Assembly: GCF_028641065.1 (NCBI RefSeq)
Contig: NC_073388.1
Coordinates: 24,304,001 to 24,368,000 of the forward strand
Direction of reading: 5' to 3'
Source: Leucoraja erinacea
Taxonomy: Eukaryota
DNA length: 64,000 nucleotides
Under the pieces are notes generated by a model. That model saw nothing but the letters and a program-made list of their open reading frames with translations. It did not search any database and had not been told where the DNA came from. Both the position numbers and the translations under genes were made by a program. Below, piece by piece: positions 8,057-62,324 of the stretch. Position 1 is the stretch's first letter. Every line of letters starts with the position of its first letter.

Positions 8057-8230
8057 TCACTGGACAATAATAAGGTTACTTCTCACCCTCTGTATGAACA
8101 GGTTTTTCCTGGTCATGGCCACAATAATCACACTCAGGCAAGTGGACAAGCCCAGCAGCTGCAGGAATGTTGGAACAGAGGGCAGGTGTCGCATCCAGAA
8201 AGTCATGGTCATCGGCTGAGTTGGAATTTC
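8057..8230 (-). CDS. MAO: MAO exon 15 (C-terminal membrane anchor, stop)
   Basis: [60 protein letters not shown] at 8059-8057. Confidence 0.94.
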   Translation of the reverse strand, partial: EIPTQPMTMTFWMRHLPSVPTFLQLLGLSTCLSVIIVAMTRKNLFIQRVRSNLIIVQ

Positions 8231-59400: not shown

Positions 59401-62324
59401 ATTTTCATTTAATAATCTGACACATTATGGTTGTTACACAAAATGAGAAATCTAGTCATGGATCACTGATTTGCATGGATAAAATGTTTAAGAAAGAACT
59501 GCAGATGCTGGAAAAATCGAAGGTAGACAAAAATGCTGGAGAAACTCTGTGGGTGAGGCAGCATCCATGGAACAAAGGAATAGTTGACGTTTCAGGTCGA
59601 GACCCTTCTTCAGACTGATGTAGGGGTGGGGGAACGGGAAGAAGAAAGGAAGAGGCAGAGACGGTGGGCTGTGGGAGAGCTAGGAAAGGGAGGGGAAGGA
59701 GAAAGCAAGAGCTACCTGAAATTGGAGCATAGCACTGGGGTGTAAACCACCCAAGCGAAATATGAGGTGCTGCTACTCTATGCATGGATAAAATGGTTAA
59801 AGGGCATGAAAAAATAAACCTGGGATTAATTAATCACTTTCAATTGTAAGGTTTTACTCATGGATTTTGAAAAGGATCAGTACTGGGGCCTCAGCTATTA
59901 TTAATGACATACTGGGGGAAAACAACCTTTTATGTCATGTGCTTCAACTTTGATACTAGGCCTATTGTGTGTTTTCTGGAAGTCCATGTACACCACATTA
60001 GCTGCATTACCCACATTGATGAGGTAAATGTTAACTCCTTACTTCATTTTTTGAACAAGGGAATTTTACAGGTAATTGCTACTCCCCAGTTCTTTGGAAA
60101 CAACCCTCTATCCAAAGAGCCCTGGAAGATTAAATTGATCAAAGAAAATGTTATGTTTCCCAGATAAAGTAGCAAAAGGAATGGGTGTGATGATGAGTTA
60201 AGAGGCAAAAAGAGGTCCATATGTGGATTGCAGATATTAGAAAAAAAATTGAGCCCGGAAAGCTGTTATATAATACAAAAAATACATCAAGCGTTACTGG
60301 ATCTGCAGAGGAGCCTAACATAGGAAGGTCAGGTTACTAAGACTGAAAGTTAAAGGTATTGGTTATCAGAAGCTCAAGGTCACACAAATGAGCTGAGTTA
60401 TAGTATTCCACTGTGGTCATTTATTCTGCAATTGGTCTCCCCAATGTAAATCATAGATTATATTATTAGCTTTGAATATAATACAGTAAATTACGATGAA
60501 TCAATTGAATTGTCTTTTCACTGTAAACACAGTGGTGCAACTGATAGAGTCACTGCCTCAGAGTGCCAGAGACCTGGGTTCAATCCTGACTTCAGATGCT
60601 GTCTGTGTGGAATGTACATCTACTCCTGTGATTACATGGGGTTCCTCCCAGTGCTCTGGTTTCCAGACATGCAGGCTCGTAGGTTAATTGACCAGTGGAA
60701 ATAGCCTCTATTGCATAGGTGACTGGTAGAATTTTGTGGCATTAATAATAATCTGGATGGCTAAAATTGGATTAGATTAGTATAGGATTAATGTAAATGG
60801 GTGATTGATGGGCAACGTGACCTCGATGAACCAAAAGATTTGTTTCTACGATGTATCTCTCTATCTATTATACATGTTTAGGGGCTCTGAACAGCAACAA
60901 AAGGTAAAAGGTGCACTGGTTGCACAACTCTCACAAGGCAGGGAAGGCAAGATGGTAATTCACCAGAGATGCAAGAAATGGCTGAAATAGTGTTCTATTG
61001 TGTAGAAACTAGAAAGCAAGAACCAGGACACCTATCATCATTCTGGGATGGAAGGAATGAAAGAAGATCATATATTTGGGAAATTGATTTGTTACTTTTA
61101 TGAATCCTGTAAATTACAGGAAACTCTCGTTACAATGAAAGATATATCCTTTGTAAGGTGTATGGAAGATGGCATTGTCAATGACATGACATAGACATAA
61201 GAAAATGGAATGGGGCCATCAAAGGAACTGAGATAAATGAAGGTACACAAAAATGCTGGAGAAACTCAGCGGGTGCAGCAGCATCTATGGAGCAAAGGAA
61301 ATAGGCAACGTTTCGGGCTGAAACCCTTCTTCAGACTGAGGTAAATGAAGTGTAGTCAAAGTATCAGTGATCACAAACCTGTCGCAAGAATTGGAGATAG
61401 ATGGAAAATGATGTGAAGGGAGGGTTCCAGAAATTAACTATATCAATATGAGAGAAATGTGGAAAGTTATAGCAAAGTTGATGAGATTGATTAAAAATAA
61501 AGATCCATCTTATTCTCCTTCTACCATCCAAGACTATGATGATACGACAATGGAGTTTTGATATAATCAAAGCAATTACTCTGTACTTATTGGTTTACAA
61601 TGACGTACAGTGAAAATTCATATGGGGAAATCTTTTGGAAATGATTAGTCTATAGTAGCCTGCTTCTGCTAAGAAAGCGTCACCTGCTTCTGCCATACAT
61701 CGAGCGTCATCTTATTCCTGTACTGTTTTCAAAATGTTATTTTCTTCATCTAATCTATTTAATTTACAATCAAATTGAGTCAACACGGACGGTCAGTACT
61801 ATTTCTCCAGGGAGTTAGTGAAATGGATTGTCTACACGCCCCCTGTTTTATCGGTCTCGGCTGGGTTAAGATTACTTGCTCATTAACTGGGGGGAACTTT
61901 TTTCCTGACGCCAGCACGGGATGGGGGCAAGTGGTCTCCCTTTTGTCGCCCATTGATGGAGATATTGCAGTGGGAATCAGGCCATGACTGACTGCTGCCT
62001 CGGCCTTTGCAATAGCCCCAGGCCTGGTTCCAAGGGCACTGCCTCCGTACCGAAGGCGATGGTTTGTATTGTTCTGCCCGAGGCCGGGTACCAGACGCCG
62101 ACGCCGGGGTGAGCGGCCCCGGCCCCGGCCCCGTTGCTAAGGTGAGGCCTTGGTTAGTCTGAGGGGCGCGCGGTTGCTAAGGTGACGGCCGCCGGGCCTG
62201 GTTGCTAAGGGATCTGTACCTCTCCAATACAGAGTCCCATCACTTCCTCCTTTTCCGTGGACAGAGCGTGATTCAAACAGACAAGGAAAGCATCAGAATC
62301 CAGGTGGACCCCGCACACCGCCAT
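49737..62324 (-). CDS. BRCC3: BRCA1/BRCA2-containing complex subunit 3 (BRCC36, JAMM/MPN+ Lys63 deubiquitinase), 8 coding exons, 261 aa
   Basis: Exons of 105,120,88,89,56,132,44,152 nt sum to 786 nt in frame. Contains HALSTEKEEVMGLCIG and the JAMM motif GWYHSHPHITVWPSHVD. Confidence 0.97.
51973..52291 (-). mobile_element. tRNA-derived SINE (HE1-like)
   Basis: The - strand head is GGGTGGCACAGTGGTGCAGCGGTAGAGTTGCTGCC, with the shared core and a (CTAAA)n tail. Confidence 0.88.
52367..52410 (-). CDS. BRCC3: BRCC3 coding exon 7
   Basis: LTHLDPITKIHNGS(V). Confidence 0.94.
52899..53735 (+). mobile_element. Probable non-autonomous Helitron (5' part)
   Basis: Starts A|TCTATATATTACTGAAACTCTC followed by a GTTT/GTGC microsatellite. 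The 3' CTRR end was not found; the element runs into a G/purine tract. Confidence 0.5.
53740..54137 (+). mobile_element. Rex1/Babar 3' fragment
   Basis: Encodes IMGDPFHPSNGMFQLLWSGKHL...ERMRRSFFPEA; tail GACGAATAAAC(TTGAC)n. Confidence 0.78.
54260..54391 (-). CDS. BRCC3: BRCC3 coding exon 6
   Basis: YERIEIPIHVVPHETIGKVCLESAVELPKILCQEEQDAYRRIH(S). Confidence 0.96.
54758..54813 (-). CDS. BRCC3: BRCC3 coding exon 5
   Basis: TGRVLYTCFQSIQAQKGS(E). Confidence 0.95.
55906..55994 (-). CDS. BRCC3: BRCC3 coding exon 4
   Basis: (D)VRTQAMYQMMDQGFVGLIFSCFIEDKNTK. Confidence 0.96.
56116..57492 (+). mobile_element. CR1/HER1 LINE, 5'-truncated, RT domain with frameshift
   Basis: NYRPVSL, RSCLTNLLEFFE, SGVPQGSVLGP, SKYADDTK and FFTQRVVAVWN motifs; 3' UTR and GTTATATG tail. 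Confidence 0.95.
58256..58343 (-). CDS. BRCC3: BRCC3 coding exon 3 (JAMM motif)
   Basis: RLADMTGHPMRVVGWYHSHPHITVWPSHV(D); preceded by an AC acceptor. Confidence 0.96.
58344..59157 (-). other. BRCC3: U12-type AT-AC intron of BRCC3
   Basis: 5' splice site ATATCCTTTC; branch-like TCTTTGAC about 10 nt before the terminal AC. These boundaries give an in-frame STEAE|RLA. Confidence 0.92.
59158..59277 (-). CDS. BRCC3: BRCC3 coding exon 2
   Basis: VDTSRIVHIHSVIILRRSDKRKDRVEISPEQLSAASTEAE; followed by the U12 donor ATATCCTTT. Confidence 0.96.
59487..59780 (-). mobile_element. Penelope-like 3' fragment with pseudo-LTR
   Basis: TSD TGCATGGATAAAATG at 59472-59486 and 59781-59795. Confidence 0.85.
60527..60865 (+). 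mobile_element. Old tRNA-derived SINE (HE1-like)
   Basis: CACAGTGGTGCA...GACCTGGGTTCAATCCTGAC head, decayed core. Confidence 0.7.
61243..61337 (-). mobile_element. Solo Penelope pseudo-LTR fragment
   Basis: Reverse complement of the pLTR at 19318-19413; flanked by near-duplicated ACTGAG(A/G)TAAATGAAG. Confidence 0.8.

Follow-up and report, generated by a model that had tools for sequence, protein, structure and literature searches.

The closest described relative of the gene reported here is MAO F, a monoamine oxidase named MAO C in its preprint, for which sequences including one of thorny skate (XP_032886353.1) have been published (Merello Oyarzun et al., 2025; PMC11833248). MAO F is a paralog of non-tetrapod jawed vertebrates that has been found in lungfish, in coelacanth, and in bony as well as cartilaginous fish; in the published tree it is monophyletic and sister to MAO A, MAO B, as well as MAO A/B, and it was lost in the tetrapod ancestor (PMC11833248). 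In bony fish CMC4 and BRCC3 flank the gene on the 5' side, which is conserved in cartilaginous fish, and a BRCC3 neighborhood characterizes the MAO F locus of sharks and early-branching ray-finned fish; the labels on the 3' side of the locus in Fig. S1 are GABRA3, GABRB4, VSIG1, and GPR34 (PMC11833248). [quoted passage not shown] The assays of that study cover tarpon MAO F and no cartilaginous-fish enzyme; the tarpon protein is mitochondrial, oxidizes all six amines tested, benzylamine barely, and is reactive toward clorgyline but unreactive toward deprenyl, whereas tarpon MAO A/B has a much higher kcat and is deprenyl-sensitive (PMC11833248). The pairs of gate residues are Phe/Met in tarpon MAO F, Phe/Leu in tarpon MAO A/B, Phe/Ile in human MAO A, and Ile/Tyr in human MAO B; the two tarpon proteins have 528 (MAO F) and 522 (MAO A/B) amino acids (PMC11833248). 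A literature search for further descriptions of MAO F, confounded by author names, returned this paper as the only relevant one among the results listed, and a search for batoid MAO enzymology found none.

The window, i.e., the whole stretch of 64,000 nucleotides of DNA analyzed here, contains a gene that is, with a rough probability of 0.94, the ortholog of MAO F in a batoid (ray or skate), as judged by synteny, accession order, and gate residue. The first-pass annotation of this DNA had proposed a second MAO lineage next to BRCC3, distinct from MAOA/B and missing in mammals; this was right, and the gene is already known, since the lineage is the MAO F described in 2025 (PMC11833248). The suggestion that the gene may be a poorly characterized one does not hold, as a tree, synteny, and enzyme kinetics have been published, and the proposed loss in mammals is correct but too narrow, the published loss comprising all tetrapods (PMC11833248).

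Exons with similarity to MAO were located on the minus strand by six-frame motif scans and then joined by splice sites. The resulting gene extends from 42002 to 8057 (minus strand) and consists of 15 coding exons with a frame of 1,587 nt, comprising 528 codons followed by a stop, that is free of internal stop codons, and all 14 introns in this model, built from the sequence alone, begin with GT and end with AG. Exon 1 (41954–42002, minus strand, as all exons that follow) carries the start codon at 42002 and the GxGxxG FAD-binding motif, which begins at residue 12, and is followed by exon 2 (35985–36079), exon 3 (33308–33445) with Tyr61, the equivalent of MAO B Tyr60, exon 4 (30142–30246), and exon 5 (28456–28547). 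Exon 6 (27728–27869) encodes Asn173, the gate residue Phe200 (codon at 27751), and Gln207; exon 7 (26541–26690) precedes exon 8 (21514–21673), which contains Lys297, corresponding to MAO B Lys296, and exon 9 (18778–18874) encodes Met317 and the second gate residue, Met327 (codon at 18827). After exon 10 (16469–16522) and exon 11 (13288–13345), the flavin attachment site Cys398 and the aromatic cage residue Tyr399 are found in exon 12 (11687–11784), and the other cage residue, Tyr436, in exon 13 (10160–10271); exon 14 (9336–9398) and exon 15 (8057–8230), with a hydrophobic C-terminal segment at about residues 490–511 and the stop codon, complete the gene. A gap of 131 undetermined bases (N) at 30964–31094 lies inside intron 3 and affects no exon. 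The gene is without any sign of decay, and a pseudogene is ruled out by the intact frame and splice sites. [quoted passage not shown] An apparent frame problem is explained by an AT-AC intron with a U12-type 5' splice site (58344–59157), and a broken BRCC3 was rejected. In a comparison with the PDB, the third exon matched BRCC36 chains with E-values of 1e-15 to 9e-15, with RPN11/PSMD14 far behind (approximately 1e-4). The BRCC3 stop codon (49739–49737) and the MAO start codon are separated by 7,734 nt (42003–49736), so that the earlier description of a complete 15-exon MAO that starts, in the same orientation, about 7.7 kb past the stop of BRCC3 was exact. BRCC3 is thus located immediately 5' of the MAO gene, which supports its identity as MAO F, and not GPR82, NDP, or EFHC2, as would be the case for MAO A/B.

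The same neighbor identifies the host. The whole BRCC3 protein has no mismatches to a record (P0122) filed under batoids, thorny skate and a devil ray among them, one to five mismatches to seven further records of sharks and stingrays, and ten to elephant shark; its identity to the eight records of tetrapods and teleosts in the comparison is 89–92%. For the last BRCC3 exon, ray and chimaera records were on top (100, 96, and 94%), followed by coelacanth (88%) and a lizard (86%), among the best 120 of 501 matches. The identity of BRCC3 to the batoid record assigns the host to the rays and skates, i.e., to the non-tetrapod jawed vertebrates, as is expected for MAO F; a tetrapod host, which would overturn the published loss of MAO F, was rejected. 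Of the flanking genes that had been predicted, CMC4 upstream agrees with the published locus, but VBP1 downstream is absent from the labels in Fig. S1 (PMC11833248). CMC4 and the published 3' neighbors would lie beyond the window. A scan for the twin-CX9C motif of CMC4, which is crude and blind to split exons or exons outside the window, detected none in the 1.7 kb upstream of BRCC3 that the window includes; its single match, at 17836, is unrelated. On the 3' side of the MAO gene (window positions 1–8056) no further host gene was recognized from the list of open reading frames and a scan of two of them, an approach of low sensitivity.

The flavin-attachment cysteine is Cys397 in human MAO B and Cys406 in human MAO A. 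With this Cys397 and the numbering of human MAO B taken from PMC11833248 (Lys296) and PMC6080100 (Tyr60, Gln206, Phe343, Tyr398, and Tyr435), all seven catalytic and flavin-site residues match the window protein at an offset of +1, while ten other offsets between −5 and +5 yield zero or one match out of seven, so that chance is excluded. The offset is constant for both human enzymes (+1 to MAO B and −8 to MAO A), and the GxGxxG motif at residue 12 together with Cys398, Tyr399, Tyr436, and Lys297 identifies the protein as a flavin monoamine oxidase. A C-terminal membrane helix is indicated by hydropathy only, the top 19-residue windows starting at residues 489–494 with a mean of up to 2.03. The active-site positions of MAO A are identical in 16 of 22 cases, the six that differ being Val172, Thr315, Met317, Met327, Thr202, and Pro103 in the window protein. 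Methionine accounts for 18 of the 528 residues (3.4%), and Met317 provides a second methionine in the cavity, in line with the "two Met in the active site" reported for MAO F (PMC11833248).

The gate pair Phe200/Met327 is that of MAO F, for which the reference gate is documented in tarpon only, and unlike that of tarpon MAO A/B, which supports the identification as MAO F; the length of 528 amino acids, equal to that of tarpon MAO F and not to the 522 of tarpon MAO A/B, supports it weakly. The likeness to published MAO F comprises the 5' BRCC3, the cartilaginous-fish host, the Phe/Met gate, the length, and the hydrophobic C-terminal segment (PMC11833248). One residue is a counterpoint to this identity: at the position of MAO B Cys172 the window protein has Asn173, the equivalent of human MAO A Asn181, whereas Gln is given for both tarpon enzymes (PMC11833248). 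With non-tetrapod MAO A/B (zebrafish mao and tarpon MAO A/B) the window gene shares the enzyme family, the core residues, and Phe at the first gate position, but these genes are situated among GPR34, GPR82, NDP, and EFHC2, have a Phe/Leu gate, and encode the shorter protein in tarpon (PMC11833248). [quoted passage not shown]

By analogy with the human and tarpon enzymes, the C-terminal helix would anchor the protein in the outer mitochondrial membrane, with FAD bound to Cys398 and the amine held between Tyr399, Tyr436, and the flavin. The amine would be oxidized to an imine, which is hydrolyzed to the aldehyde, and the reduced flavin would be re-oxidized by oxygen with the participation of Lys297, yielding hydrogen peroxide. 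Given the Phe200/Met327 gate and Asn173, the enzyme should be MAO A-like, as is tarpon MAO F. Predicted substrates are tyramine, dopamine, serotonin, phenethylamine, and kynuramine, with benzylamine as a poor substrate, and clorgyline is predicted to block the enzyme and deprenyl not to do so. The published picture, in which sharks, rays, and some bony fishes use MAO A/B and MAO F, is confirmed here in a ray or skate. This pair differs from MAO A and MAO B of mammals, which matters for the interpretation of MAO-inhibitor experiments in such fish. Both the discovery and the testing of MAO F date from 2025.

In human, FUNDC1 is located near MAOA/B and FUNDC2 near BRCC3. As the first-pass annotation had soundly proposed, MAO F and MAO A/B are likely a pair retained from whole-genome duplication, here the gnathostome-specific second one (2R), and this reading would place the pair on a paralogon that survives in human as the parts of the X chromosome around FUNDC1 and FUNDC2. 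It is made likely by the timing of the duplication and by FUNDC1 and FUNDC2 being published ohnologs: the duplication from which MAO F originated occurred after the split from the cyclostomes and before that between sharks and bony fish (PMC11833248), which coincides with 2R as placed on the gnathostome stem (PMC10927551), and FUNDC1 and FUNDC2 are listed among the strict ohnologs, with nine gene pairs common to their clusters (PMC5526904). The alternative that stem gnathostomes acquired MAO F through duplication of a segment or of a single gene, which concerns the origin of the gene only, is rather unlikely in view of this timing, the shared pairs, the human positions of FUNDC1 and FUNDC2, and the GPR34 label that Fig. 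S1 shows at each of the two MAO loci (PMC11833248). [quoted passage not shown] It also agrees with MAO being named in none of the ohnolog lists searched. The parts consulted of the MAO F paper (PMC11833248) and its preprint contain no statement on MAO F with the words "ohnolog," "WGD," or "genome duplication"; MAO is named neither in an ohnolog database paper (PMC13450315; 2026; main text plus a supplement), the online tables of which may list the pair, nor in three supplements of the hagfish genome paper (PMC10927551). No ohnolog statement for MAO was found in the literature searched, which includes passages of PMC10244343 and leaves most subscription journals outside. Among these texts, the ohnolog reading is the only unpublished part of the present account, a modest addition if true. 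If MAO F and MAO A/B are indeed 2R ohnologs, the tetrapods lost one of them and re-established a system of two enzymes when the other was duplicated in tandem, so that MAO would exemplify the loss of an ohnolog with functional replacement. Cartilaginous fish would then still have both original genes in their ancestral positions, and their two enzymes would offer the best test of the first division of monoamine breakdown.

RefSeq accession numbers roughly follow gene order. This was used to compare the positions of BRCC3, MAO F, and MAO A/B in four of the five cartilaginous fish of Table S1 (PMC11833248). The number of BRCC3 is one away from that of MAO F and 10,337 from that of MAO A/B in elephant shark, 6 and 2,602 away, respectively, in thorny skate, and 6 and 3,721 away in bamboo shark, where the species of the BRCC3 record was inferred from its number range; in catshark the distances are 964, which is not adjacent, and 27,014. 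BRCC3 is thus numbered beside MAO F (1–6 apart) in three of the four species, which supports the identification of the window gene as MAO F. It is accordingly very improbable that the gene is an ordinary MAO A/B ortholog that was relocated beside BRCC3 in this lineage, a scenario compatible with the exon structure and catalytic residues, which are common to all vertebrate MAOs. Against such a relocation stand the BRCC3 neighborhood as the published MAO F locus of sharks and early-branching ray-finned fish, the Phe/Met gate, and the listing of both genes in Table S1 for skate, for bamboo shark, and for elephant shark, in each of which the BRCC3 number is close to that of MAO F (PMC11833248).

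The locus also occurs in public sequencing runs. Parts of window positions 26500–30300 are present in 20 of the 24 runs listed, six of which, under three organism labels, contain at least half of the sampled words; the remaining 14, X14 and X20 (see below) among them, contain under half of them, and the best run may be the source of the window itself. A DNA run under a fourth label (X14), aligned to 7900–27890, contributed eight pieces of 500–700 nt, several of which extend across exons. No RNA run is among the listed holders of 26500–30300. In X22 and X24, two RNA runs that carry the same species label and of which approximately 1 and 5% were read, mean depth in repeat-free exon bins was 0–0.62, and no exon-exon joint of the gene was among the 15 joints listed (with 3,531 further ones) in an alignment of 88% likeness that was swamped by repeats. 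This depth, without a clear transcript in the small fraction of reads covered, would suit an additional (third) MAO copy peculiar to batoids, or a gene that is silent while its frame is intact, but either is hardly credible given that the 15 exons, the 14 splice pairs, and seven of seven core residues are all intact and that the locus recurs in DNA runs of several labels. A single contig of 162 nt from a further run (X20), classified as RNA by guess only, aligns to 27727–27872, the extent of exon 6, and hints at a transcript of the gene.

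The MAO F protein encoded on the minus strand of the window (42002-8057) carries an asparagine at residue 173, the position matching Cys172 of MAO B, as translated from the codon at 27832 (-). The paper describing MAO F gives a glutamine for the matching position, "like in human MAO A" (PMC11833248). Because the residue of human MAO A at this position is Asn181, matching Asn173 of the window protein, the glutamine wording may be a slip. An assembly gap of 131 bases lies in MAO intron 3 (30964-31094), and none of the 15 MAO exons was lost to it. Within the last MAO exon, a donor-like GTGAG is located at 8086 (-), ten codons upstream of the stop, which from sequence may allow an alternative C-terminus.

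CpG-rich stretches are found at both gene starts, one at the beginning of MAO intron 1 (41200-42000) and one around the start of the neighbouring BRCC3 gene (62000-62800), with CpG observed/expected values of 0.76-1.38 across the two, suggesting that MAO and BRCC3 have separate promoters. BRCC3 intron 2 (58344-59157, minus strand) has AT-AC ends and a 5' splice site of the U12 type; an open BRCC3 frame was obtained from the window sequence only with the AT-AC boundary. For BRCC3, a U12 intron common to human and Arabidopsis is listed in PMC2831892, and it may correspond to intron 2.

MAO intron 2 contains a near-perfect palindrome of ~750 nt (33650-34403), with arms of 231 and 139 nt that are 97% complementary, resembling a miniature inverted-repeat transposon. 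Two reverse-transcriptase fragments (4319-5089 and 56487-57299), a fragment of an integrase core within MAO intron 1 (38146-38712) and one of a DDE transposase within MAO intron 7 (23463-23831), all four with Pfam matches below the curated cut-offs, are by sequence similarity putative mobile-element remains. An open frame without a stop runs past the window start (1-650, minus strand) and resembles a Tc1/mariner transposase.
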